Part shown: positions 29,556 to 63,383 of the stretch, in pieces
Layout: every line of letters starts with the position of its first letter
Position numbering within the stretch: position 1 is the stretch's first letter
The notes under the pieces: model-generated
What the model saw: only the letters and a program-made list of their open reading frames with translations
The model's database searches: none
What the model was told of the DNA's origin: nothing
Assembly (NCBI GenBank): GCA_964640175.1
Contig: CAZXFW010000001.1
Coordinates: 160,460-224,459 of the forward strand
Length of the DNA: 64,000 nt
Direction: 5' to 3'
Origin: an uncultured Polyangiales bacterium
Lineage (GTDB): Bacteria; Myxococcota_A; Polyangia; Polyangiales; GCA-016699535
Program-made: the position numbers and the translations under genes

Positions 29556-30605
29556 TTAGGACTTCAAGCGTGTGGTGGGTGGCATAAGGGTATGACCGAG
29601 TTCTATGAGAAGCTGTCGTTGTTGATTTGTGATCTTTGATGGAATGTCCACTTCAACATGAACGTACTGGTCACCCTTGCCATACGCTCCCAACACAGGA
29701 AACCCTTTGCCACGTAGGCGAAAGATTTTTCCTGAAGCGGTTCCTGGTGGGATCTTGAGAACGACAGGGCCACTCACGGTAGGCACGTCAATTTCTGCGC
29801 CTAGCACTGCTTGAGGATAGGTAATGGAAACAGAGCAATGAATATCTGAGGCTTTCCTGGTGAATATTGGATGCTCTTTGATGTGAATATACAAATGCAA
29901 ATCCCCTGCATGGCTAAGGGTACGGTCTCCAGCGCCCCGCAATGTACGCGTGTTTCCATGTTCAATGCCAGCGGGTACCTGTACGAGTAATGCTTCGGTT
30001 CTCTGCATGACGCGTTTGCCTGAACAACGCATGCATGGGTTTTCAATGATTTGACCAGTTCCGTGACACACCTCACAGTCGCGCACGCCTTTAAAAACAC
30101 CTTTGCCTTTGTGCACGTGTCCTTGCCCTTTGCATGGAATGCAGGTCGTTGCTAGCGTTCCGATGGCAGCACCAGTACCGTCGCATTCGGTGCAAGGTAC
30201 CGAGCGATCCACTTGAATGGGTTTTTCTGTACCAAGAGCGGCCTCTTCGAAGGTGATCTCCAGGTGATAGCTCAAGTCTGCAGGCAAGTGACTGCGTCGA
30301 CGTCCGGAACGAAACATGTCCCGAATGCTTTCCAAAACTTCTTTAAGATCAATGCCGGAAGCATCTCCTTGTGCTCCAAACGCCGCATGACCAGTTTGGT
30401 CATAGCGTTTCCGTTTATCGGGGTGACTTAGAATAGCATAGGCTTGTACGCACAATTTAAACCGTTCTTCCGCTTCCGTATCCCCAGGATTACGATCGGG
30501 GTGATACTGTACGGCAAGTCTGCGGTAAGCGCGCTTGATTTCATCGGCTTCTGCAGTTTTGGTAACCCCAAGTACGGCGTAATAATCCTCAAAAGTCTCT
30601 ACCAT
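29556..30605 (-). CDS. dnaJ: molecular chaperone DnaJ (type I, with zinc finger)
   Basis: J domain (DYYAVLGV...YHPDRNP) and four CxxCxGxG-type motifs: CTECDGTG, CIPCKGQG, CEVCHGTG, CMRCSGKR. An alternative start is at 30623. Confidence 0.85.
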   Translation of the reverse strand: MVETFEDYYAVLGVTKTAEADEIKRAYRRLAVQYHPDRNPGDTEAEERFKLCVQAYAILSHPDKRKRYDQTGHAAFGAQGDASGIDLKEVLESIRDMFRSGRRRSHLPADLSYHLEITFEEAALGTEKPIQVDRSVPCTECDGTGAAIGTLATTCIPCKGQGHVHKGKGVFKGVRDCEVCHGTGQIIENPCMRCSGKRVMQRTEALLVQVPAGIEHGNTRTLRGAGDRTLSHAGDLHLYIHIKEHPIFTRKASDIHCSVSITYPQAVLGAEIDVPTVSGPVVLKIPPGTASGKIFRLRGKGFPVLGAYGKGDQYVHVEVDIPSKITNQQRQLLIELGHTLMPPTTRLKS

Positions 30606-51781: not shown

Positions 51782-52549
51782 TCACTTTGAGGATTGCCAG
51801 ATAAACTCAGGTGGCTTTCCTGCAACCACTTGGGTTTCGATTGCGCGTGCCGCTTGGCTGCCTGGTTCAAAACGCACCACAGGACATGTAGAGCCTGTAC
51901 AGTTTTTTGCCTCAGCGATCGCGTCAAAGTCCACATCGAGCAGCCATGATGCGGGATCAACCTGCACAAGAAGATGATCTCCCATGTGGATCGCATGCTC
52001 AAATGTCACTGCGTCGCTACCGCTTCGCACAACAGGTATGCCCTGTTCTGTCGCTTCCTCTTGCTGAAAAACCAGCTCGGCGACAAATGGGATCGTGGTT
52101 TGATCCAGCACTGCCTTGCCCACCAGCCGTAACGAGTTGTTACCCAGCACTTGCGCTGCGTCCGTCACGAGAGGCTCTGACTGGGTGAGCAATGAAACAA
52201 ACCCAAGATCGTACATCCAGGAACGAACGAAACCCGAGATGGCATTCATTTCGCCCGCAGGTACCGGTATTGGATCGAGTGTGTTGACGATGGTAGCGCT
52301 TGTCCATTCGGCTTGCGCCGTCTCGCACAGCTCGCCCGCTTGCACTCCCGCACAAAGATAGAGCGGACCAAAAACAAGCCAGGCCTGATCAAGCTCAGTC
52401 TGCCAACCATTCCGGCCCACGACCGGTGCATCTTGCTGCACGCCGCTTACCGAAAGCGAAATACCAACACGCTCCTGACCGGTGTCAACGCAGCCAACCC
52501 AGCCAGGAACGAATGCAAACAGCAAGGCTACTTGGACCACGTACTTCAT
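51782..52549 (-). CDS. lipoprotein, distant member of the DGW-lipoprotein family of this island
   Basis: Lipobox GWVGC. NGWQTELDQAWLVFGPLYL resembles DGWQVRFESYIAVLGDIHL of the 55224 gene. Start overlaps the stop of the TonB-dependent receptor gene by 4 nt. Confidence 0.5.
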   Translation of the reverse strand: MKYVVQVALLFAFVPGWVGCVDTGQERVGISLSVSGVQQDAPVVGRNGWQTELDQAWLVFGPLYLCAGVQAGELCETAQAEWTSATIVNTLDPIPVPAGEMNAISGFVRSWMYDLGFVSLLTQSEPLVTDAAQVLGNNSLRLVGKAVLDQTTIPFVAELVFQQEEATEQGIPVVRSGSDAVTFEHAIHMGDHLLVQVDPASWLLDVDFDAIAEAKNCTGSTCPVVRFEPGSQAARAIETQVVAGKPPEFIWQSSK

Positions 52550-55122
52550 AGGCGGATCTCCAGGGTGGCCATGATCGTACGCGGCGCGCCTGCAGAAATA
52601 TGGCGGGCCGGCACTCGTGACGGCATGCCACTCGGATTCCAGTTCGAAACAAAGTTGTATTCGAGGGCAGCATACCGATCGTCAAACAGATTAAAAATCT
52701 CTAGTCCCAGCTCAACGTTACGCCAGCCAACACCTACGGAGGCGTCAAACAGAGAGACCACCGACGCAAAATCGCCGTGCGGTAGCGGTCGAGACGACAA
52801 CAACGAGTAGCCTATGCCTGCACGGCCCCGCAGATCTGCTGCGTACACATCTCTCACTAAACGGCCCTTGGCCCCCAAATCTAAACGCAACACCAAGGGC
52901 GGTATGTAGGGCAGATTCTGCCCCTCTTTGAATGCAGGTTGAGGATTTTGAGCCGTCGCTGGAGGCGGTTCTAGAAGCTCTGCATCCACGTAAGTAATAG
53001 ACGCTGCACCCAATAGCCATGGGTACGGTTGTGTTTTGGCGTAAAGCACCGTGCCTGCCCGGCGCGTCTCGCCGATGCGTTCGGCGCGCCCTTCTGAAGC
53101 ATCAAAAGCAATGTCATCGGATAGCCACGTGTAAAAGCCGGTAAGAGAAAGCTCCAAGCGCTCATCCCAGCGCATGCGCACACCCACATCGCCAGAGCGT
53201 ACCTTGGTAAAAGGCGCTTGTTCACCGTCCTCAAGCGTACGTGCTTGAGGTGAACGATATCCTTCACCGTAGGCGCCAAGCAACGACACCCACTTTTGTA
53301 ACTTGATCTCGGTACTCGCACGTGGCCCCCAGGCGAGGCCAAACGACGTGCGTTCAAAGCCCGTGATATAGGTATCGTCTGGCCGCGTAAGCGGTGCAAG
53401 ATTGCCCAGCTTGTCATTCACATCATAGTAAAGTGCATCCGCCCGCAACCCCGCGCGCACGTTCACAAAAGGTGTCAATGACCAATCCAGATCGCCCCAC
53501 ATGCCAAGGTCTACCCCCTGAATCTGCGCATCCACACGCTTATCCCAGATCTGGTTGTGTACCGCTGCATCGAGCAGGGCTTGGGTTTGATCAATAGAGT
53601 CCATACGTCCGGTGAGACCAAGCTCCAGTGTCCCCTGCGCCCATGACGCGGGCCGATACGGCGCCGTACGGTAGCGGCCGTGCAGGCCAAGCGATGTTGT
53701 GCGATTGTTTTGCGCGATCAAATCGCCGCGACCCGATACATTCTCCAGAGTCTGGGAACGCTGGGTAAATCCAGTGAAGTTTTCGTGAAGCTGAAAGTTA
53801 TCGTAACTGAGCCATGCACCCGCCTCGGCGTTATCGCCCGCTGTGCCGCGGTACTCCGCAGTCAACCCCGCCATGAGGCGCCCGCTCAGTGCATTTTGCT
53901 TCTGGGCTGTGGGCAATGGATACACATCGTAGAATCCCACGCTGCCTGCATCGATGTCGTCTTTTCGCAACACACCGGCCATGTCTGCCCGCGAACCATA
54001 GAGCACGCCAAGGGCACGATAGCGCCAACGTTTGGAACCAAACGTATGCTGGAAAATGCCGCTTGCACTTTGACCCGCGCGATTTTGTCCAAAGCCATCG
54101 GTACGGCGGTATTGCACGGCACCGAACGACTCCGAAGATAAGTCCGGTGGAGCCCACAACGCGAGTTGACGAAACGTGTTAAACGACCCGTAGCCTGACT
54201 TAAGCAAGACGCCGCGCTCTTTCACACCAAGATCAAAATCTACCGTTCCTGCGACGGCAAAATCACCTTGGCGCGGATCGTACACACCTTCGGTGATGCG
54301 TAGGTTTTGAACAACTTCGGACATCAAAAACCCGAGATCGGCATAGCCTTGGCTGTGAATATGAGACGGCAAATTGATCGGAAGTCCACCGACACGCAAT
54401 TCCAAATCCTGACCATGCTCCGCATCGAAGCCACGCAGCATGATATTGTGCGCAACGGCATCGCCCTCTGAGCGCGCGATATAGACTCCGGGAGCTGAGC
54501 GCAAAATTTCTGCGCCTTCGGCATGGGGCGCAGCTCGCAACACCTCGCTATCAATCCGAAAATGACTGCTGCTGCGATTCTCGGTGCGCAGTGTAGTGGG
54601 ATCGACTCGAGCGGTGGCGCTGTACGCCTTCTTTTTTGGCACCGGCTTGAGATGCGGATCGGCGACCATGTGCGTGGGCGGATGTTCATCGCGTGCTGCA
54701 CCTGAAGCGCCGGGCTCTGTTGTCGCCAAGTCAAACAGCGGTAGCTCAAAATGCACGGCCACATGAACGCGGCTGGCGACTGGCTGATCACCCTGGCGAG
54801 CAGGCGCAAACTTCCAACTGCGCAGAGCTTGCAGCGCGGCACGATCAAAATCGGCGCCTGCCGAATGCTCCACCTTGGTAGCCATGATCTGCCCCGTTTC
54901 ACTGAGAACCACCTCAATCATCACCGTGGGGTGCAATCCCTCCTTGATCCGTGCAGGCGGATACTCAGGTGGCGGCGCCTCTAACAAGCGGGGCGGCTCC
55001 AAAGCCAGCTTATCTACGCTAGGCGAAGGAGCTTGCTGTGCCATTGCCCCCTGAGGTAGCCAAGGGCCAATCGTGATGCTCAGAAGCAGCCAACCGTGCA
55101 GTTTTGGACGGCAATTCCACAT
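52546..55122 (-). CDS. TonB-dependent receptor-like outer-membrane protein with N-terminal TonB_C domain
   Basis: The N-terminus after the signal peptide carries a TonB C-terminal-type domain (PEYPPARIKEGLHPTVMIEVVLSETGQIMATKVEHSAGADFDRAALQALRSWKFAPA). This is followed by a plug-like region (ILRSAPGVYIARSEGDAVAHNIMLRGFD) and an approximately 600-aa beta-rich barrel. Confidence 0.75.
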   Translation of the reverse strand: MWNCRPKLHGWLLLSITIGPWLPQGAMAQQAPSPSVDKLALEPPRLLEAPPPEYPPARIKEGLHPTVMIEVVLSETGQIMATKVEHSAGADFDRAALQALRSWKFAPARQGDQPVASRVHVAVHFELPLFDLATTEPGASGAARDEHPPTHMVADPHLKPVPKKKAYSATARVDPTTLRTENRSSSHFRIDSEVLRAAPHAEGAEILRSAPGVYIARSEGDAVAHNIMLRGFDAEHGQDLELRVGGLPINLPSHIHSQGYADLGFLMSEVVQNLRITEGVYDPRQGDFAVAGTVDFDLGVKERGVLLKSGYGSFNTFRQLALWAPPDLSSESFGAVQYRRTDGFGQNRAGQSASGIFQHTFGSKRWRYRALGVLYGSRADMAGVLRKDDIDAGSVGFYDVYPLPTAQKQNALSGRLMAGLTAEYRGTAGDNAEAGAWLSYDNFQLHENFTGFTQRSQTLENVSGRGDLIAQNNRTTSLGLHGRYRTAPYRPASWAQGTLELGLTGRMDSIDQTQALLDAAVHNQIWDKRVDAQIQGVDLGMWGDLDWSLTPFVNVRAGLRADALYYDVNDKLGNLAPLTRPDDTYITGFERTSFGLAWGPRASTEIKLQKWVSLLGAYGEGYRSPQARTLEDGEQAPFTKVRSGDVGVRMRWDERLELSLTGFYTWLSDDIAFDASEGRAERIGETRRAGTVLYAKTQPYPWLLGAASITYVDAELLEPPPATAQNPQPAFKEGQNLPYIPPLVLRLDLGAKGRLVRDVYAADLRGRAGIGYSLLSSRPLPHGDFASVVSLFDASVGVGWRNVELGLEIFNLFDDRYAALEYNFVSNWNPSGMPSRVPARHISAGAPRTIMATLEIRL

Positions 55123-55157
55123 ACGTAATGCCCAGGGCTATCGTATTTTTAGTCCGT

Positions 55158-55174
55158 TTGCAACGTACTTGCAT
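55158..55174. promoter_or_regulatory. TTGCAA-N5-TTGCAT operator (copy b), divergent promoter region
   Basis: TTGCAACGTACTTGCAT, in the 101-bp spacer between the receptor gene (55122, minus strand) and the lipoprotein gene (55224, plus strand). Confidence 0.5.
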
Positions 55175-55223
55175 TAGTAATTCAATTGCGTTAACTTACG
55201 GCTCCATGTCGAATAGGGAGACG

Positions 55224-56192
55224 ATGATGGACCGTATTAAATGGATAACGCTCTGGTCTTTGCTTGGGATTTTGGCGTGTGGCGACGATTCCGGCGGGGG
55301 CACGCTGACCGTTGCGATTGAAGCAGAGGACTCCATCACCAGCGGCCTCGATCCAGGAGCGGAAGTCGAAAACATTCAAGATGGCTGGCAGGTGCGTTTT
55401 GAGTCTTACATCGCAGTGCTTGGAGACATCCACTTAAACTTTGCAACCGATGCCACCACGGAAGCGCACGCAGAGCAACTGTATGCCGTGGATTTGACTT
55501 CCGTGCCTCAAAATGGATTAGCACTATGGACAGTTCCGGCTTTGAAGGCAGGAGACTGGAATTTCAGTTATGCCTTAGGTGATGGCAGTCTCGCTGAGCC
55601 GCATGCAAGCGTGAGCGAAGAGGCCTTTGCGCAGATCAGCGAGCAGGATTTGACGTATATGATCACCGGAACGCTTTCTAAAACGGATGGTGAGTCATGT
55701 CCGCCAAACAGCCTCGCCGAGCCCGGCTCTGCCACACCCGTTGGCACCAACGCTGGCGGCGATCACTGCTACACCAACGCGGCTGTGAAGTTTAGTATTT
55801 CACTCAATGCCGAGACCCACTACACCTTCTGCGGCCTGGACGATGCAAAGAGCTTCAATATGCCCACGGCTGGCACGCAACACGTGGCCATCACCATCCA
55901 TGGCGACCACATGTTTTTCAATGGTTTTCCTGAGGGCGACGAGGGCGGCACCTTGCGCCTTGCACAGTGGCTCGCGGATTGTGATTTGAATCTCGACGGA
56001 CAGGTAGATATGGATGAACTTGCGCAGATTGCGCCCGCAGACTTGTCCGAGCTTGATGACCGCTACCAATTGGGAGGCTCCAGCATCGAGCTCGACACCA
56101 TGCAAGACTATGTAAAGGCACAACTTAAAACGCAGGGGCACATCCAGGGCGAAGGCGAATGCGCCATCGATGGCCAATCCCACCACCACTAA
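55224..56192 (+). CDS. lipoprotein of the DGW family with EF-hand-like loop and His-rich C-terminus
   Basis: Lipobox GILAC. Clear paralogue of the 63376 ORF: DGWQVRFESYIAVLGD vs DGWEVRFDKYVAVVGD; SCPPNSLAEPGS vs TCPPPDVAEPGS. Has a DLNLDGQVDMDE EF-hand-type loop and ends GQSHHH. Start 55224 or 55227. Confidence 0.55.
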   Translation: MMDRIKWITLWSLLGILACGDDSGGGTLTVAIEAEDSITSGLDPGAEVENIQDGWQVRFESYIAVLGDIHLNFATDATTEAHAEQLYAVDLTSVPQNGLALWTVPALKAGDWNFSYALGDGSLAEPHASVSEEAFAQISEQDLTYMITGTLSKTDGESCPPNSLAEPGSATPVGTNAGGDHCYTNAAVKFSISLNAETHYTFCGLDDAKSFNMPTAGTQHVAITIHGDHMFFNGFPEGDEGGTLRLAQWLADCDLNLDGQVDMDELAQIAPADLSELDDRYQLGGSSIELDTMQDYVKAQLKTQGHIQGEGECAIDGQSHHH

Positions 56193-56246
56193 TCCGGGGG
56201 ATTATTCAGCGTGGCCAAAACCCCACTGATCGCAAGAAAATTTGCC

Positions 56247-56687
56247 CTACGTTCTTCGGCGGCATGAGGCACATTTGCCGGTGATCTCGAGTTCGTTATC
56301 TTTGAACGCCTTGCTCCACTTGGGATCTTGGAGTGTCTGAAGAATCTCTGGAGGTACGCACTCAACTTGTCCACATACGCGGCACGCAAAATGCGGATGG
56401 TGGTGCAAGTCCTCAGACTCCCCCACGTATTGGTAGCGGACGATTCCTCCAATGCGGCTGGCAACACGTGCCAAGTTGACCTCTACCAAGTCAGTTAAGT
56501 TTCGATACAACGTAGACTGATCCCAGTCGTCCGTTCCTAGGTGTGTCGCGACGTCCCTCTGTGACAATGGTTTTTTCGCTTCTTTGAGCAATCGAAGCAC
56601 CGCTACTCGGGGCGCGGTAGCGCGCAGCCCCTTGTCCCGTATCTTTTCTCGGAACGCCTCTTTTTTGCTTCCTGTCGATGGCACCAC
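56247..56687 (-). CDS. Fur-family metalloregulator (metal specificity unknown)
   Basis: Winged-helix region (GLRATAPRVAVLRLL), an HHHPHF metal-site stretch, and CRVC...CASC structural-Zn cysteines. GTG 56687 is preferred because the ORF-track N-terminus (to 56735) would be encoded by the operator repeats. Confidence 0.8.
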   Translation of the reverse strand: MVPSTGSKKEAFREKIRDKGLRATAPRVAVLRLLKEAKKPLSQRDVATHLGTDDWDQSTLYRNLTDLVEVNLARVASRIGGIVRYQYVGESEDLHHHPHFACRVCGQVECVPPEILQTLQDPKWSKAFKDNELEITGKCASCRRRT

Positions 56688-56699
56688 AACAGAAGCATT

Positions 56700-56724
56700 A
56701 TTGCATTTGCAAACCAAATGCAAT
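56700..56724. promoter_or_regulatory. operator (copy a) in the fur-family gene promoter
   Basis: ATTGCATTTG-CAAAC-CAAATGCAAT is a perfect 10-bp inverted repeat. It contains TTGCAA-ACCAA-ATGCAA (56707-56723). Confidence 0.5.
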
Positions 56725-56806
56725 GCAATTTTCACGCCAGAATTGATTAATCATGCCGAGGAGCCGTGTTTAATGCAATCAATATGCTTTTGCTATCTAA
56801 AGCCTA

Positions 56807-56823
56807 TTGCAATCTACTTGCAT
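56807..56823. promoter_or_regulatory. TTGCAA-N5-TTGCAT operator (copy c)
   Basis: TTGCAATCTACTTGCAT followed by a TATGCT -10-like hexamer. It lies about 18 bp upstream of ATG 56841. Confidence 0.55.
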
Positions 56824-56840
56824 TATGCTAAGTGTCTGCC

Positions 56841-57185
56841 ATGAAGCAACACGCCGGCCCTCTCAGCATAGTCATAGTCGCGATTCTGTTCTTTACGGCT
56901 TGTGAAGCACCGCAGGTTGTTCACGATGACCTAGCATTCGATCCAGCGGCGATTGAAAATATTGAATTGCCACCCGAGGTCATCAAAGTGATCTGTGGTG
57001 TGGCTGGTGGCACGATTCTTGTTGGCTTTGTGGGCTGGCTCCTAGAGAACTACGGAGAAGGCGTGGTTGCTGAGTATCTTTCCGTAAGGCATGCAGTGGG
57101 ATCAGATGCATACTGGCGTGCTAGGGCGGCATTTTTGCGGACCTCGACGATGACGCGCTGGACCTCATTAAACCAACTTTACTAG
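56841..57185 (+). CDS. small lipoprotein/membrane protein, possibly the 5' part of a frameshifted longer gene
   Basis: Lipobox LFFTAC, then a TM helix (VICGVAGGTILVGFVGWLL). The downstream ORF's frame is already open from 57125. Confidence 0.4.
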   Translation: MKQHAGPLSIVIVAILFFTACEAPQVVHDDLAFDPAAIENIELPPEVIKVICGVAGGTILVGFVGWLLENYGEGVVAEYLSVRHAVGSDAYWRARAAFLRTSTMTRWTSLNQLY

Positions 57186-57220
57186 AAGTCGAAGACCTTA
57201 CTGCGAACGTTGAAACAGCC

Positions 57221-58405
57221 GTGGGCGGCCAATCCTTTCTTGATCATCACGCGCATTTCCACAGCGAGGATGACGGGCCTGATCACCACCATCATCACCA
57301 CGATTCCGATCCGCTGGGTGTGCCCGAACGTAACACCGTGACCAGCTATCTTGGGGCGATGCGCCAGCAGCGGCCGGATTTTCTGCAAGGCTTTAGCGAT
57401 GCCGAAGTCATCGCGCTTGTGGAAATTCGGCGAGGCGCAACTGCCACCGTTGCGTATCAGGATTTGTCTGCCGCGTTGACGCAGTTGGCGGTGCGCAGCG
57501 GTTTTGCTGAGCAAAGCTTGATACATTTGTCCCCCACAGCCAATGATGCTTTGGTGATCAACGGTCTGATGAGCGAACTACATGACAGCGTTCATCATGC
57601 TGCCGATGCGATTGATGCAAAGCGAAGCCGATCTGCCATGCTTCGTGAGGTGTTGTTCTCCGTCGCCACGGGCTTTTTCGATTTGCTTTACAACCATCTT
57701 CCAACTTGGCTGTTTGGACCGAAATCAAGGCCGGTGATGCGTTCAACCCGCGTGGCCAACTTTTTCTTCCACTGGTTTCCTTTCATTCCAGGAGCAGCGA
57801 CTGGAGCCCTTGGTTTTCTGAAATGTCCCCAATTTCAACCCACTGTCACAGCCGACCAACTTTGCGTCGCAGCCGGAGAACTTGCGGGGGTTCCGGTCGC
57901 CTACCACACTGCATTTCACGAAAGTTACTTTGCAGAAGCCAAAAATCAGAGCCTTTACATCAATTTGCAAGGCCCCTCAGAAAGCGCTTCTATCGTGGAA
58001 CGTTTTGAGCTCACCCCTGCCCACGAAAACGATCGGCTCATTTGGCGATACCGCTCACCGAGTTGTGATGAGCAAAGTTCAACGGAAACCTGCCATGAGC
58101 TGGAGGCCAGAGGGGTATCCATTCGAGATATCTTAAGGGAGAGTTCGGATCTGAGCGAAGACGCAATTCAAGCATTGCCTCAAGAATACCGATTGCAAAT
58201 CAGTCATCGCTATTCGGGTGAGTTTGTAGAGCAAACGAACGAAAACATGGTTTCCGAATGTCTTGAGATTCCCGGATCGGAAGATCTCGAACGCGATTGT
58301 TCGCCCTTTTCGCAGGGACACGTATGCATCCCGGGCACACCCAGCGCAGAACAATGCTGTAACTACTGCCATGCGCTCCCCGGCGTAGGCGGTCACTGCC
58401 ACTGA
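57221..58405 (+). CDS. His-rich / C-terminally Cys-rich protein, unknown function
   Basis: N-terminus DHHAHFHSEDDGPDHHHHHHDSD. C-terminus CSPFSQGHVCIPGTPSAEQCCNYCHALPGVGGHCH. GTG start with no signal peptide of its own. Confidence 0.5.
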   Translation: MGGQSFLDHHAHFHSEDDGPDHHHHHHDSDPLGVPERNTVTSYLGAMRQQRPDFLQGFSDAEVIALVEIRRGATATVAYQDLSAALTQLAVRSGFAEQSLIHLSPTANDALVINGLMSELHDSVHHAADAIDAKRSRSAMLREVLFSVATGFFDLLYNHLPTWLFGPKSRPVMRSTRVANFFFHWFPFIPGAATGALGFLKCPQFQPTVTADQLCVAAGELAGVPVAYHTAFHESYFAEAKNQSLYINLQGPSESASIVERFELTPAHENDRLIWRYRSPSCDEQSSTETCHELEARGVSIRDILRESSDLSEDAIQALPQEYRLQISHRYSGEFVEQTNENMVSECLEIPGSEDLERDCSPFSQGHVCIPGTPSAEQCCNYCHALPGVGGHCH

Positions 58406-58469
58406 GTCGGAGGGGCTATGGAATCTGCCCGTCGGCTACTTTTTGGATGGCTGCTGATGTCATGCGCAG

Positions 58470-59171
58470 GTGCAGTGCGCCGCTGAAAACGCATCGCCCG
58501 AGAAACGCACCGCCTATTTCAACGCCTTGAAATCAGAAATGCTGGCGCAGCTCCGCTCCGCAGACAAACTCGGCCACGAGCAACAAAAAATCTATGGAAG
58601 TCCTGATTTCTCCGGTTACGATGCAAACTTCGAAGAGCAGGCCCGTACCGACTTTCATATCCTGAAAAGCGCAGCCAGTCGCCAAAAAAACCTTGATGAG
58701 CTCATTCAAACGCATAGCCTCAAAGCACAGCAAGCAAGTTTTGTGCAGCAAAACATCAATTTCTATTTGTTTTCTGAAAATGGGCGAAGTGAATGGCAAA
58801 ACTATCGTTTCGCAGCGGAGCGAAGCATCATCGAATCGCTCAGCGCCCTCTACGATGTTGCGGTGTTGGACCAGGGGAAACAGTTGGTCTGGGACGGAAC
58901 TTTAAACGAGGGGCATGGCGGCATTGTGCGCGAAACGTTTACTGGAAGCTGCGGCCAGAGCCACCACTGCTTGGATTTGCAGCGTGATATTCGCTACGTA
59001 CTCGACTCACCGATAGACGCCGAACATGTCCGCTTCAGCCGTCTCGCACACATCTCGCGTCACATTCAAAGCGAAGTGGAGCAACTAAAAATTGTGGCGG
59101 GTGAAGAAGATCTCTACTTTCCCATATTGCTCGCGAAAATTTCGTGGAACAAACGACTCGGCAATGGATGA
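58470..59171 (+). CDS. hypothetical protein (possibly a frameshifted lipoprotein)
   Basis: 233-aa ORF with a GTG start and no family motif. A lipoprotein signal peptide is encoded out of frame just upstream (58418-58486). Confidence 0.4.
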   Translation: MQCAAENASPEKRTAYFNALKSEMLAQLRSADKLGHEQQKIYGSPDFSGYDANFEEQARTDFHILKSAASRQKNLDELIQTHSLKAQQASFVQQNINFYLFSENGRSEWQNYRFAAERSIIESLSALYDVAVLDQGKQLVWDGTLNEGHGGIVRETFTGSCGQSHHCLDLQRDIRYVLDSPIDAEHVRFSRLAHISRHIQSEVEQLKIVAGEEDLYFPILLAKISWNKRLGNG

Positions 59172-59358
59172 AAAAAGCGCGGCCTTACTTGCAAGTTACG
59201 ATTCCGTGCGTATTCGGATACTCGAGCACGCACCAGAGTTTGCTGCCGTCGATTGTGTGATTAGTTCAGAAACCACCTGGCAAGAACGTATAGACATCAT
59301 TGAGTCTCATGTGTGGACAGCCGTTGACGGCCTGCTTCTCGGCGTGGACGATCTATGA
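59164..59358 (+). CDS. small hypothetical protein (64 aa)
   Basis: ATG 59164 overlaps the upstream stop (ATGGATGA), which suggests translational coupling. No recognisable motif. Confidence 0.3.
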   Translation: MDEKSAALLASYDSVRIRILEHAPEFAAVDCVISSETTWQERIDIIESHVWTAVDGLLLGVDDL

Positions 59359-59370
59359 CGCATCCATGCA

Positions 59371-60555
59371 TTACGAGGTGGGGTAAAGGCCCAAAGGGGC
59401 CACAGGCTGGATAAACTTTCCCTGCCAAAGCAAAGTAAGAAACTCTTGCCAAGGATAAACCACGATGTTGTCATGGGTGCGTCGCATCTCACTGTCACGT
59501 GATACAAGCACATAATCACGAACCAGCTGTTCCTCCTTGAGCGCGCGCAGTCCTTTTAGGTGTTTGTCCGTCGCGAGGTTGGTTGATTTGATCTCAATGG
59601 CCATCTGCTTGCCGAGCACCAGATCGACTTCAAACTGGGAGGTGCTTCGCCAATACTGCATCTCTAAATCAACGCGAGCGTAACTCAAAAAGGCACGCAC
59701 TTCGTTGATAATAAAGTGCTCGAATGCTCGGCCAAAAAGCTCCGAACCGTCTAAGATCGCGCCCCGTTTGGCCAGGGTGTTCGTGATGCCGACATCAAAA
59801 AGATAAACTTTCTTGCGGGTGATCGCTTTTCGTTTCAGGGTGTATCGAAACGGAGCCAGTGCATATGCAATCAAGGTGTCTTCCGCGATTTGCAGATAGT
59901 TATGCAGGGTGCGCGCTGGAACACCGCAATCACTCGCCCAGGATTCGTAGTTGACTTCTTCACCATTACTTAGGGCGAGCGTATCAAGAAATCGAGCATA
60001 GTTCGGTAGGTTTCGCACGAGGCCTTCGGCCTGTATCTCTTCGCGCAAATAGAGATTGGCATAGCTGCGTAACTCCTCGTGAGGCACCCGACTTGTATAG
60101 ATCGCCGGAAGCCCTCCTCGGTTGAGATAGCGCAGCAGATCGAAGTCACTAATCTCCAAGAAGCTCAGCGGAAAAAGAGAAGCCCAGAAAGCACGTCCTG
60201 CGAGTAAATTCGCCGCACCTCGGCGTAGTTTACGCGCGCTGCTGCCAGTGAACAAAAAGCGTCTGCCCTCAAGCTCGATCAGGCGGTGCGCTTCGTCGAG
60301 GAGTTGCGGCAGTTTTTGGATCTCGTCAATGACAAGCAGCTGCTTCGGATCAGGATTCTGTTCCTGAAGCAGCTTGGGTCGACGCACTAATGACGCGAAG
60401 ATTTCGGCATCCAGTAAGTCGTATACACGGGCGTCGCTCAACTGCTGTCGAATGAGGGTGGTCTTACCTGTGGCTCGCGGCCCAAATAGAAAAAAAGACT
60501 TTAGTTTCAATAGGTTGGATAAATCCAACGCGCGCGTATAGATGATATTCCGCAT
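59371..60555 (-). CDS. AAA+ ATPase of the AAA_14/DUF4143 type
   Basis: Walker A FGPRATGKTTL, Walker B LLVIDEIQ. The C-terminal half resembles the DUF4143 region (YWRSTSQFEVDLVL). Confidence 0.75.
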   Translation of the reverse strand: MRNIIYTRALDLSNLLKLKSFFLFGPRATGKTTLIRQQLSDARVYDLLDAEIFASLVRRPKLLQEQNPDPKQLLVIDEIQKLPQLLDEAHRLIELEGRRFLFTGSSARKLRRGAANLLAGRAFWASLFPLSFLEISDFDLLRYLNRGGLPAIYTSRVPHEELRSYANLYLREEIQAEGLVRNLPNYARFLDTLALSNGEEVNYESWASDCGVPARTLHNYLQIAEDTLIAYALAPFRYTLKRKAITRKKVYLFDVGITNTLAKRGAILDGSELFGRAFEHFIINEVRAFLSYARVDLEMQYWRSTSQFEVDLVLGKQMAIEIKSTNLATDKHLKGLRALKEEQLVRDYVLVSRDSEMRRTHDNIVVYPWQEFLTLLWQGKFIQPVAPLGLYPTS

Positions 60556-60655
60556 GTCTATGACAGAATATCATGATAATCCGCCATAGAAAAGCGATCT
60601 GTCTTATCCTCGCAGAAGCTATTGCAGTCTGCATACTAAACCAGATATGACGCTA

Positions 60656-60672
60656 TTGCAATCCACTTGCAT
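60656..60672. promoter_or_regulatory. TTGCAA-N5-TTGCAT operator (copy d)
   Basis: TTGCAATCCACTTGCAT followed by TATGCT. The 27-nt block 60653-60679 is identical to 56804-56830 except for one base. Confidence 0.55.
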
Positions 60673-60704
60673 TATGCTAGTAGTAGCCGCAAAGAGTGCC
60701 CTGT

Positions 60705-61622
60705 ATGAGTTTTTTTCGATTTCTGATCGCCGCAATAACCCTTTGTGTTCTAGGTTGCGCAGCACAAACACAACAGAACCCCATCGAAAGCGATGGCAAC
60801 GGACAACAACTATGTGGCGCAGTCGAGGATATCATCGTCCATGGGTGCGCGGGCCACGGCAGAGCCGCTTTAACCAATCCCAGCTTTCCTCCGCAGGTTT
60901 TTCCGATTCCCAACGCAGACATCGGGCTTTCCGACGCTCTTCCGATCGGGGCTGCACCGGAAGTCGCGCGTCTGGGACACACGGTATTCAAGCTCGAACT
61001 ATCCGATGGTCAACCCTTCTACGTTCTGCCAGAAGCGCCGATAGGCCACGAGTACGAAACGCAGCTCTGGAGCATTTTTGTGGGTGCCTACACAAGCGAC
61101 GGTGCCGTAGTCACGCCTCTACTGGAGATAAAAAGAAACGGAGAATGGGTAAACGCAGAGTATTCCATTGCCCCGCTCGGCGGGGGAGGTGCGGCTTGCC
61201 AAGGCATGTTCTCACACGAACAATCCTTTTTGCTGCAACGGTTACTGCCCTACGAAGTAAGGGTTTTGGCTCCAGGAGCAGACACCATCTTCGTACTCTT
61301 CGATCCGTCTTGGCAGCTCTACTTCGACCAAACCAATGGATATCGTTGCCAAAGTGTCGTCGAGGAGATGCTCACATCGATCGCTACTCCCGCCCTGGAA
61401 TGCGGAGCGGAGCCCGATTACAAGGTGATCGATGGAGTTTGCATGCCAAGTTGCGGCCAAGCTTCGCGCAACTATTACGGTGCGAACCACCTACGCGGCG
61501 ACGATACGGCAGAAGAACAGCGCGCGTATTTAGCCTGTGTTGATTCGGGCATAGCCACGGGAGATTCCCTAGACCTCGGCAACACCCACGACTGCACAAA
61601 ATGCATTCTCGTATGGCCCTAA
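60705..61622 (+). CDS. H-x-C-x2-H lipoprotein, paralogue 1
   Basis: Lipobox VLGC. VHGCAGH motif followed by GHTVFKLEL. 305 aa from ATG 60705. Confidence 0.55.
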   Translation: MSFFRFLIAAITLCVLGCAAQTQQNPIESDGNGQQLCGAVEDIIVHGCAGHGRAALTNPSFPPQVFPIPNADIGLSDALPIGAAPEVARLGHTVFKLELSDGQPFYVLPEAPIGHEYETQLWSIFVGAYTSDGAVVTPLLEIKRNGEWVNAEYSIAPLGGGGAACQGMFSHEQSFLLQRLLPYEVRVLAPGADTIFVLFDPSWQLYFDQTNGYRCQSVVEEMLTSIATPALECGAEPDYKVIDGVCMPSCGQASRNYYGANHLRGDDTAEEQRAYLACVDSGIATGDSLDLGNTHDCTKCILVWP

Positions 61623-62710
61623 CACCACGATTCATTAGCGCCTTGCTATTTTTCTTCTCGGCCTGCGCAGTTAGCAGCTCTGATGAATTGGATAGCCAAC
61701 AGAGCTCCCTGGCAAGCTTCTGCTCCGGCGGCGTTAGCCTTGCAGCTCCAAGCTGCTCCGCACTTGATGCCTCGCATCAAATTCATATCTGTGGGCATGA
61801 TTCATTGGCGCTGGATCCCGAGGCTGAAGCTTCTGGATGGATTTTACGAGGGGATGGTGTTCGGTCGCCTAAGCCTCATACGGTCTACAAACTGACCCAG
61901 GACAACACCATGTCCTTCGCTCAGAGTTTCATATCCGAAGTCGCGATTGTCACCAAAAATCTCAGTCTGTCTGTACCGAACGCCACTGCCATCTATCAGG
62001 GGCCCAATGGTTGCACAGAGGGATTCTTCACTCAAACCTCCAGCTATTTTGTGGGCGCCGGCAGCGAACTGGACTTGAGGCTTTCGATTGAAAATCCTGA
62101 GGAGGACGGTTTTCTGTTGATCGATCCGGAAACAGTCGTGCAAGAAGTCAAGCTTGACGGCGATTGTGACGGTACGGGGGGCGCTTCTTTCTGGATCGCC
62201 AATCCAGAGGCGCGTGGCTGCAAAGGGAGCGTCGGAACGGATTCGGCACCCGATCCCAACGACGCGGATCCTTGCACGCCGAATATCAGTGCGGCCCCAT
62301 CATGCGCTCCAGAGCAGCCGAAGGACGGCTCCGAGAGTGAGGAGGAGTCAACCGAAGAGGATGAACATCCAAATCAAAGTACCTATTCCGTTTGTGACCT
62401 AAATACCTTTCCATCCAATTGCTATCTTCGAAACATTGATGGAGCGGCTCGCGCGACTGATGCACGCGATGCCGATGCCAGTGCTCAGCCCCTCGCACTC
62501 GCATGCACCTACGATGCCATCGCTGCCGTCGGTGGAGAGTACCCTGGGCTTGATAAAGGTGAGCGCTGGCGTTGCGAACAGGATCAAACACAAAATCGCT
62601 TGTGGTGGGCTGGACCCTATTGCGAGCAGGGTTACCAAGAATGCCCGTATTACCAACGAACCACTAAAGCTGTTCGTTGTTGGCCACAGAATCAGGCTTG
62701 CCCGGAATAA
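61613..62710 (+). CDS. H-x-C-x-H lipoprotein, paralogue 2 (with acidic Cys-rich C-terminal extension)
   Basis: Lipobox FFSAC. IHICGHD motif followed by PHTVYKLT. Start overlaps the upstream stop. Confidence 0.55.
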   Translation: MALTPRFISALLFFFSACAVSSSDELDSQQSSLASFCSGGVSLAAPSCSALDASHQIHICGHDSLALDPEAEASGWILRGDGVRSPKPHTVYKLTQDNTMSFAQSFISEVAIVTKNLSLSVPNATAIYQGPNGCTEGFFTQTSSYFVGAGSELDLRLSIENPEEDGFLLIDPETVVQEVKLDGDCDGTGGASFWIANPEARGCKGSVGTDSAPDPNDADPCTPNISAAPSCAPEQPKDGSESEEESTEEDEHPNQSTYSVCDLNTFPSNCYLRNIDGAARATDARDADASAQPLALACTYDAIAAVGGEYPGLDKGERWRCEQDQTQNRLWWAGPYCEQGYQECPYYQRTTKAVRCWPQNQACPE

Positions 62711-62714
62711 AACG

Positions 62715-63383
62715 ATGCACATCACCCAACGCACAATGATGTCATGGTTCCTAGTGTTTATGTCACTCGTGGGCTGTGCCGCCGACACAGGGAGTAAGGA
62801 ACCCAACACGCCGCAATCCGGCGACGGAGACGCCGGTACGAAAGACGACACCGGCCCCAACCTTCCGCAATTCACTCTCGAAGAGGACCCCTGCGCGTCT
62901 ATGCTTATCCCAGGAGCAGTGGACCACGCATGCATTCATGCGCTGCGAGGTCCCTATTCGACCGTAAAGGCCAGTGGCACCTTTGACACAGATGTTAACA
63001 TCTCCGAACGCCATACGTTTTTCACCATTGAACTCTCAGAAACTGAAGGTGGTTATCACGGATACCTGCGGTTTCGCCATGAACAGCCCGTCGCCTTCCC
63101 CAATTATCCGCAACCCTACTTCATGCTGGGCACAGGAAACGAAAACTTACAATTGTTCGTACTTGATTCGGCTCAAAATCCAAGCACTGCGCGCTATGCA
63201 GATAGGGTTAGCCCCAGAAACCCTCAGTGCGGTTTGCGCTATGCCTTTGTCTACCCCCTTGCTACCGCCCTCACACATACCTTTTACCTCTACTCACCCA
63301 CGCGTTCCGAAGTGACCTTGGTTGCAGAGCACCTTTTCGACTACGTGGATGCCCAGTGGGTGCAGGAGTGTGCGGATGAATAG
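62715..63383 (+). CDS. H-x-C-x-H lipoprotein, paralogue 3
   Basis: Lipobox SLVGC. DHACIHA motif followed by RHTFFTIEL. ATG 62715 lies just after the upstream stop; the ORF-track start at 62436 lies inside the previous gene. Confidence 0.55.
   Translation: MHITQRTMMSWFLVFMSLVGCAADTGSKEPNTPQSGDGDAGTKDDTGPNLPQFTLEEDPCASMLIPGAVDHACIHALRGPYSTVKASGTFDTDVNISERHTFFTIELSETEGGYHGYLRFRHEQPVAFPNYPQPYFMLGTGNENLQLFVLDSAQNPSTARYADRVSPRNPQCGLRYAFVYPLATALTHTFYLYSPTRSEVTLVAEHLFDYVDAQWVQECADE

Follow-up and report, generated by a model that had tools for sequence, protein, structure and literature searches.

The window analysed here, a stretch of 64,000 nucleotides (64 kb) from an uncultured Polyangiales bacterium (contig CAZXFW010000001.1), contains four palindromic sites of the general form wTGCAA-N5-TTGCAw around a divergent gene of the Fur family. 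The assignment of these four sites as operators of the adjacent regulator is well supported by sequence comparison, and we hold it with high confidence. The reading as a whole, that they are the operators of an autoregulated, metal-sensing Fur-family repressor that most likely responds to zinc (Zur-like), is put forward with moderate confidence, lowered because zinc is supported as the effector for the family and is less certain for the window protein. Binding of the regulator to these sites, its action as a repressor and the role of zinc as effector are all inferred. The Zur-like assignment is based on related genomes, in which the palindrome precedes the regulator gene as well as genes for ZigA-type chaperones, ZnuA, ZIP, TonB-dependent receptors and RibA paralogs. 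The features that carry this reading are as follows, with scores from a position weight matrix (PWM):

55158 to 55174, operator A (TTGCAACGTACTTGCAT), exact match to TTGCAA-N5-TTGCAT, 21.1 bits
56247 to 56684, minus strand, regulator gene, GTG start, 145 aa, Pfam FUR match with E 1e-11
56707 to 56723, operator B (core TTGCAAACCAAATGCAA), putative autoregulatory site, 20.4 bits
56807 to 56823, operator C (core TTGCAATCTACTTGCAT), exact match, 25.2 bits
60656 to 60672, operator D (core TTGCAATCCACTTGCAT), exact match, 25.8 bits
56804 to 56830, operator C with flanks (CTATTGCAATCTACTTGCATTATGCTA), reference copy of the 27-nt repeat family D1
60653 to 60679, operator D with flanks (CTATTGCAATCCACTTGCATTATGCTA), 96% identical to the block of operator C

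The four sites in the window

An initial annotation of this DNA had described four intergenic copies of TTGCAA-N5-TTGCAT, and direct reading of the sequence from 54800 to 61200 recovered a site at each of the four positions. Operators A, C and D are exact copies, whereas operator B departs from the string at 2 of its 12 specified positions and shares only the TGCA-N7-TGCA core. The intergenic placement held for all four. Operator A lies in a region of 104 nt (55123 to 55226) common to a divergent receptor gene (start at 55122, minus strand) and a lipoprotein gene (start at 55224/55227, plus strand); operators B and C both lie in 56685 to 56840, between the regulator gene and a lipoprotein gene; and operator D lies in 60556 to 60704, with an AAA ATPase gene on one side and a lipoprotein gene on the other.

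The exact string occurred 3 times in the 64 kb against 0.04 expected, and none of 100 shuffles reached 3. With two mismatches allowed, 14 matches were found against 12.3 expected, which is at background level, so that only the exact copies make the motif significant. For the core TGCA-N7-TGCA there were 6 matches (2.6 expected), and 4 of the 6 are the sites described here. The remaining motif-like matches to the PWM in the window were weaker and fell inside genes; those at 29895 and 2202 were rejected as sites, being located within dnaJ and an ABC permease gene, respectively.

The core of operator B, centred 31 nt upstream of the GTG start of the regulator, is enclosed by the perfect 10-5-10 inverted repeat ATTGCATTTG/CAAAC/CAAATGCAAT at 56700 to 56724, in agreement with the initial annotation. 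The single-base difference that it gave for the 27-nt blocks of operators C and D was also reproduced (26/27 identical), and the repeat search returned 55155 to 55181 as a third copy with 67% identity. Outside the 27-nt blocks the sequence is unrelated between copies. Around operator B there are further copies of the hexamers TTGCAT and ATGCAA (56701, 56718 and 56723), and a comparable hexamer array stands upstream of the regulator in one related locus (L075); these arrays suggest that more than one dimer may bind. A weak motif-like site, ATGCAATCAATATGCTT, was seen between operators B and C (56773 to 56789, PWM 11.8 bits). At 60615 to 60639, 34 nt upstream of operator D, there is a degenerate copy of the operator block (GCTATTGCAGTCTGCATACTAA compared with GCTATTGCAATCCACTTGCATTATGCTA) whose arms are 4 nt closer; it may be a relic of a duplicated operator or a piece of the divergent AAA ATPase promoter.

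Operators C, D and A end 17, 32 and 49 nt before the start codons at 56841, 60705 and 55224, respectively, while operator B begins 22 nt upstream of the regulator start codon and operator A begins 35 nt upstream of the receptor start codon. Because the sites end 17 to 49 nt before the downstream start codons, their overlap with promoters is likely. The strings TATGCT and TAGTAA, which resemble -10 hexamers, are present beside the sites; when TTGCAA or TTGCAT was paired with them by hand as a -35 element, the spacings were 12 nt or the -10 hexamers were poor, and these promoter assignments were rejected. A Shine-Dalgarno sequence (GGGAG) precedes the start at 55224, so only the gene at 56841 could be leaderless.

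Conservation of the motif and the genes that it precedes

The motif was compared across 80 genome loci with orthologous regulators (L001 to L080; 841 kb) from Nannocystales, Polyangia, Bradymonadia, Gemmatimonadota and Acidobacteriota, including the cultured Enhygromyxa salina and Plesiocystis pacifica. The core TGCA-N7-TGCA occurred 63 times in these loci against 8.8 expected from base composition. Thirty of the 63 matches fell within 200 bp upstream of the regulator start, a region that makes up 1.9% of the DNA (binomial P ~1e-34), and 11 further matches fell within 250 bp past the regulator stop codon. The enrichment was confined to the N7 spacing: spacings of N3 to N6 and N8 to N11 gave 0 to 2 matches upstream of the regulator. 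The sites clustered 29 to 113 nt upstream of the regulator start, and at a PWM threshold of at least 14 bits such a site was found upstream of the regulator in 50 of the 80 loci, in addition to the window. The resulting count matrix reads wTGCAA-(G/T)(C/T)N(G/A)(C/A)-TTGCAw, with a weaker outer symmetry across loci, C-W-N-W-TGCAA…TTGCA-W-N-W-G, which accounts for part of the identity between the 27-nt blocks. These results show an uneven distribution of the motif, and so run counter to the equal frequency in coding or unrelated regions that the initial annotation had named as refuting evidence; the retention of the palindrome before regulator orthologues in many genomes supports the view that the sites are operators of the adjacent regulator.

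The repeats might instead be something other than operators of this regulator, namely a shared promoter element (e.g. an alternative-sigma -35), the sites of another factor, or leftovers of duplicated promoters. TTGCAA does resemble the -35 hexamer TTGACA, the near identity of two blocks extends over more than a 17-bp operator needs, and the copy at 60615 to 60639 is decayed. Nevertheless, we judge this explanation very improbable, since the motif is a two-fold symmetric palindrome with a fixed arm spacing of 11 bp, the flanks beyond 27 nt are unrelated, part of the extra conservation fits the wider palindrome, and the motif travels with regulator orthologues across at least three phyla while other spacings do not.

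Open reading frames (ORFs) beginning directly downstream of the sites were clustered and 44 of them were scanned. The results revealed that zinc-homeostasis genes are preceded by the motif in related genomes. Genes of the cobW/COG0523 family made up 15 of the 44; others encoded TonB-dependent receptors, MerC-like His-rich membrane proteins, DUF3450/ExbB and His/Asp-rich lipoproteins. ZIP transporters followed sites in two loci (L015 and L020), a ZnuA/AztC-like binding protein in one (L041), and GTP cyclohydrolase II (RibA) paralogs in five. The full-length COG0523 genes divergent from the regulator scored 609 to 632 bits, compared to the NCBI equivalog cutoff of 600 for the zinc chaperone ZigA. 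By tblastn, 27 to 29 of the 80 loci have a ZigA-type COG0523 gene adjoining the regulator, and the box lies in the intergenic region between the two. The 44 plus 87 site-adjacent genes in the other loci included no nik, cbi, sodF, siderophore, mntH or sit genes. A gene set of this kind is typical of Zur regulons (PMC6103462).

Metagenome contigs were additionally scanned for the exact Zur box predicted for Desulfovibrio (ATGCAACNNNGTTGCAT; see below), which gave at least 120 loci. Among the matches listed, a Fur-family gene stood beside the site, or in an operon starting at it, in 26 of 120 loci, the site being located ahead of the Fur-family gene itself, ahead of one or more genes that precede it, or just past its stop. 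Many of these Fur-family proteins share the signature of the window family, HxHF-C-xx-C-x4-C-L. The neighbours among the matches listed comprised TonB-dependent receptors (7), ZIP (2), MerC (2), ZnuA, ZrgA, cobW and a cation-efflux protein, together with unrelated chance matches.

Two side observations came from the same loci. A FAD/NAD(P)-binding oxidoreductase of ~400 aa (Pyr_redox_3, NAD_binding_9) adjoins the regulator/ZigA pair in 12 loci, including L015, L020, L032, L038, L042, L055, L058, L063, L070, L074 and L078, and sometimes the box stands directly before it. An excess of TGCA-N5-TGCA (43 matches in the 80 loci) was considered as a second operator type and rejected, because it consists of codons of the COG0523 GCICC motif. 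The corresponding string, …GGCTGCATCTGCTGCAC…, is COG0523 coding sequence (e.g. L042 at 5570 and L055 at 5563) and provides a cheap DNA marker for these chaperone genes.

The regulator protein and its probable effector

The regulator is a divergent Fur-family protein: it matched Pfam FUR (PF01475) with 45.3 bits over residues 18 to 128, against a cutoff of 23.1. An identical protein (P0001, 145 aa) is present in a public collection, together with relatives of ~50% identity from Myxococcota metagenome-assembled genomes (MAGs), and a profile search of 1.8 billion representatives returned 1653 clusters at E ≤ 1e-10, of which 49 reached E ≤ 1e-30. The regulator aligned end to end with Fur structures, while Zur and Nur structures scored worse; the Nur structure 3eyy matched with E 1e-3 for the single sequence and 3e-6 for the family profile, ranking 11th of 13 and 16th of 21 among the matches in the PDB, after Fur and Zur structures. 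No NCBIfam subfamily cutoff was reached among the Fur, Zur, PerR and Irr equivalogs, the best score being that of Bacillus-type Fur (47 bits against 220).

Conservation was assessed in 120 close relatives and 149 wider representatives. The regulator has a Cys4 structural site (C101, C104, C138 and C141) and an HHHPH motif (H94 to H98). Among the 120 relatives, Y60-R61, H94/H96/H98, C101-x2-C104 and C138-x2-C141 are invariant or nearly so; H94 is less well kept in the wider set (69/149). These residues agree with the hallmarks of the Fur family, a conserved Tyr-Arg in the recognition helix of a winged-helix N-terminal domain and, in the C-terminal dimerisation domain, a His-rich motif with CxxC after it. 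Sensor positions were obtained by aligning the family to PaFur and VcFur, with equivalences as stated in PMC2691836. The invariant C109 aligned with PaFur Glu100 and VcFur Glu101, E85 with PaFur Glu80, H96 with His87 and H98 with His89. The position of PaFur His32 is an invariant Pro, and the conserved H42 lies one helical turn further. The counts for these residues were as follows:

H96, 120 of 120 close relatives and 140 of 149 wider representatives
H98, 120 of 120 and 138 of 149
C109, 120 of 120 and 138 of 149
H42, 116 of 120 and 124 of 149
E85, 96 of 120 and 107 of 149

The putative sensor set H42/E85/H96/H98/C109 (His3-Glu-Cys) would fit zinc sensing, a His/Cys site being better suited to zinc than to iron. 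The second regulatory site of PaFur consists of His86, Asp88, Glu107 and His124. A site of this type was not found in the family, in which the positions of His86 and Asp88 are occupied by Leu/Val/His and Pro, respectively.

As judged from the box, the closest precedent comes from Desulfovibrio, for which Rodionov et al. (2004, Genome Biol 5:R90; PMC545781) predicted a second ZUR box type, ZUR_D (ATGCAACnnnGTTGCAT), in front of znuABC-zur operons. Both are 17-bp palindromes with the same ATGCAA/TTGCAT arms and a 5-nt spacing, both are linked to zinc uptake, and in both the regulator lies within its own regulon (PMC545781). They differ in the spacer, which in the Desulfovibrio consensus has a fixed C and G at its ends while the window family prefers G/T-Y-N-R-C/A with an outer base of A or T, and in their targets, which are znuABC in Desulfovibrio and a TonB-dependent receptor and uncharacterised lipoproteins in the window. 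The ZUR_D box is itself a computational prediction, and the likeness is one of boxes. The operator type is thus not new, being a Zur_D/Nur-type 6-5-6 box that was predicted for Desulfovibrio Zur in 2004, and the set in the window is genuine and conserved.

The same architecture is known from the nickel-responsive Nur. The initial annotation had likened the motif to a Nur box tTGCaa-N5-ttGCAA, and this is indeed the 6-5-6 box given for Streptomyces coelicolor (An et al. 2009, NAR 37:3442; PMC2691836). Nur and the window regulator are alike in belonging to the Fur family, in having a 6-5-6 box with TGCAA arms (unlike the n-1-n boxes of Fur and Zur), and in their Cys4 and HxHxH motifs. In Nur, the nickel site is formed by His70, His72 and His126, all of which are essential for DNA binding, and the M-site by His33, His86, His88 and His90. 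H94, H96 and H98 of the window regulator align with Nur His86, His88 and His90 via the PaFur alignment, and the position of Nur His33 is the invariant Pro. On the strength of the matching box, the mirrored M-site histidines and the Cys4 site, the regulator could be a true Nur orthologue, that is, a Streptomyces-type nickel repressor acquired by or ancestral in this lineage. The remaining evidence makes this highly improbable: His70, His72 and His126 have no counterpart in the window protein, which has no His in residues 49 to 93 or after 98 (none is conserved there in the family), the position of Nur His33 is Pro, overall sequence similarity to Nur is low, and 3eyy ranks behind the Fur and Zur structures. 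Nur moreover controls the nik transporters (nikABCDE and nikMNOQ) and sodF, whereas the context of the window family is zinc genes; neither the window nor the motif-adjacent genes of the related loci scanned include a nickel transporter or sodF. The identification with nickel and Nur is therefore not borne out.

Compared to canonical Zur, the system is similar in the expected action of a metal-loaded Fur-family dimer that represses uptake genes, COG0523 chaperones and TonB-dependent receptors (PMC6103462), and in having a Cys4 structural site, a putative Cys-containing sensor site and often more than one box per promoter (PMC6103462). It differs in the score of the window protein, below the cutoff of the NCBIfam Zur model, and in box type: the known Zur boxes of E. 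coli, B. subtilis, Streptomyces and Mycobacterium are AT-rich 7-1-7, 9-1-9 or 23-bp palindromes (PMC6103462). In Myxococcus and Sorangium, canonical Zur profiles had not picked up any site near a ribosomal-protein paralog (PMC3087516), and no described Zur or Fur box for Myxococcota was found in the literature searched. The n-1-n Fur box GATAATGATnATCATTATC (quoted in PMC2691836 and PMC545781) was not matched by the conserved motif, which is a 6-5-6 palindrome with TGCAA arms. Two further candidates from the literature were set aside: the paper on the zinc exoprotein ZepA (PMC10957091) showed no link to the window proteins, and a comparison with an alpha-proteobacterial Mur box with putative TGCAAT arms was not confirmed, PMC1698941 showing only the logo of a 19-bp palindrome, and was not used.

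Several results weigh against a zinc-responsive repressor in the window. No classical zinc gene (znuABC, ZIP, COG0523 or ribosomal-protein paralog) is present in the window, so the assignment of zinc rests on orthologues elsewhere. The NCBIfam Zur model PRK11639 gave 22.4 bits against a cutoff of 167, and no solved Zur is as close to the regulator family in sequence as Fur is. At two of the probable sensor ligands the window regulator carries Gln, Q42 (H42Q, the sole Gln among the 120 relatives) and Q85 (E85Q), so its metal response may differ or be weakened; its nearest relative, P0002, has Cys at position 42 and Gln at 85. Finally, a sigma-70 consensus scan of 55050 to 60800 for promoters and terminators placed no promoter at any of the four sites, and promoter occlusion is accordingly assumed from distance only.

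With operators and regulator as described, the effector could be another metal (nickel, cobalt, copper, iron or manganese) that the cluster imports. The arms shared with the Nur box, the two Gln residues (Q42 being confined to the window regulator), and the closeness of the family to iron-sensing Fur are compatible with this, as are the His6 and His3 tracts of the cluster proteins, which would also suit Ni or Co. For copper, the receptor faintly matches the TonB-copper receptor model (E 5e-4), and the sole fold match of the conserved lipoprotein is the copper protein MbnP (E 3e-4, TM ~0.25). These copper hints, however, are far below any threshold, the nickel-site residues of Nur are absent, and the nik, cbi, sodF, siderophore, mntH and sit genes are missing from the site-adjacent genes scanned, while about one third of the loci have a ZigA-equivalog gene adjoining the orthologous regulator, and genes for ZnuA and ZIP follow boxes. 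We therefore consider another metal unlikely, though a more serious contender than either a Nur orthologue or a non-operator repeat.

Under the zinc-responsive reading, a metal-loaded repressor dimer, the metal being most likely Zn(II), would bind the DNA, with each recognition helix (…STLYRNL…, Tyr60-Arg61) reading one TGCAA arm. The two arms, 11 bp or one helical turn apart, would thereby give rise to the palindrome wTGCAA-N5-TTGCAw. The bound repressor would be expected to block RNA polymerase, since no site is more than 50 nt from a start codon. Upon metal shortage the repressor would leave the DNA and release four transcription units, listed as the TonB-dependent receptor with its partner lipoprotein, the conserved lipoprotein with an HGDH motif, the two operons for lipoproteins rich in His or Cys, and the gene of the regulator, the last via operator B, the weaker variant site.

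Genes adjoining the operators

The main interest of the system lies in an uncharacterised protein branch and the uncharacterised genes under its putative control. The genes and operons adjoining the operators in the window are as follows:

51782 to 52549, minus strand, predicted lipoprotein of 255 aa, directly downstream of the receptor gene, no Pfam match
52546 to 55122, minus strand, TonB-dependent receptor, Pfam TonB_C and Plug
55224 to 56192, plus strand, lipoprotein of 322 aa, lipobox ILAC, C-terminal SHHH, no Pfam match
56841 to 58405, plus strand, first part of the operon after operator C, a 114-aa lipoprotein ORF (56841 to 57185) followed by a His-rich ORF in another frame
58419 to 59171, plus strand, next gene of the operator C operon, with a lipoprotein signal (MESARRLLFGWLLMSC) and, after it in another frame, a 233-aa ORF (58470 to 59171)
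60705 to 63383, plus strand, operon after operator D, three Cys-rich predicted lipoproteins (60705 to 61622, 61601 to 62710 and ~62715 to 63383)

The receptor is the probable uptake gate of the regulon. Its orthologues, with 52 to 56% identity, stand beside the regulator in five loci (L002, L003, L010, L018 and L075). Homologues of the 255-aa lipoprotein come after the receptor gene in five related loci, and in the five named above all three proteins (the receptor and those of 255 and 322 aa) are encoded together next to the orthologous regulator. The same motif was found upstream of the receptor and lipoprotein orthologues in L002, L003 and L018, the 322-aa orthologues being preceded by it in L002 and L003. 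In the window receptor, a TonB C-terminal domain lies at the protein's own N-terminus (residues 50 to 127), before the plug, an arrangement shared with the myxochelin receptor model MxcH and the L002, L003 and L018 orthologues.

The 322-aa lipoprotein has more than 500 homologues of ~330 aa, which without exception are annotated as hypothetical and lack a Pfam match. Within this family (P0121 to P0240), the motifs HGDH, DCDLNLDG (an EF-hand-like loop) and KTQGHxQGEGEC are invariant. The AlphaFold model of the protein had a mean confidence score (pLDDT) of 86.5, and a Foldseek search against the PDB returned only the MbnP match; in view of the scores given above, this predicted likeness is a hint and not a fold assignment.

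The trio of TonB_C-fused receptor, 255-aa lipoprotein and HGDH lipoprotein provides candidates for an uncharacterised import route for zinc or another trace metal. Tentatively, these observations may be joined into a broader proposal. The regulator may belong to a large uncharacterised Fur branch in Myxococcota, Gemmatimonadota and Acidobacteriota, probably including Desulfovibrio Zur_D, that would use a 6-5-6 TGCAA operator, of which Nur is the only other known case, and would sense metal through His and Cys, with Cys in place of Fur Glu100. The window regulator, with Q42 and Q85, may have shifted in metal specificity or affinity, and it may control a new outer-membrane metal-acquisition module made up of the TonB_C-fused receptor, the HGDH lipoprotein family (more than 500 unannotated members) and His- and Cys-rich lipoproteins. 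This combined proposal is considerably less secure than the operator assignment, and we regard it as possible.

The results provide a usable operator model, wTGCAA-N5-TTGCAw, for a Fur branch in which canonical Zur profiles find nothing, and the model would allow metal-limitation regulons to be read from the sequence of Myxococcota, Gemmatimonadota and Acidobacteriota MAGs. They further suggest that the 6-5-6 architecture of Nur is independent of the Nur nickel site, which bears on the structural explanation offered for that architecture. Nothing in these findings overturns current understanding.

In the operon after operator C, the products of 56841 to 58405 had no Pfam or NCBIfam match, and none of the 80 related loci has a homologue. 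The His-rich reading frame, which contains DHHAHFH and HHHHHH, is open from 57125 (it is also given as 57221 to 58405). It overlaps the end of the 114-aa ORF (57125 to 57185) and reads like its continuation (…DLDDDALDLIKPTLLEVEDL…), with a T5 run at 57131 to 57135, a pattern that looks like a frameshift. It is not a one-off assembly error, because the independent Logan assembly L081 (SRR25788007) is identical, with no indel. A second apparent frameshift, or an overlapping start, occurs in the same operon, where the signal peptide from the ATG at 58419 (MESARRLLFGWLLMSCAG…) stops at 58485. The three lipoproteins of the operon after operator D have the lipoboxes VLGC, FSAC and LVGC and no Pfam or NCBIfam match. 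The run of lipoprotein operons is broken by the AAA ATPase gene (AAA_14/DUF4143, 59371 to 60555), over whose start codon lies a 46-nt imperfect palindrome (60551 to 60596) with 81% complementarity.

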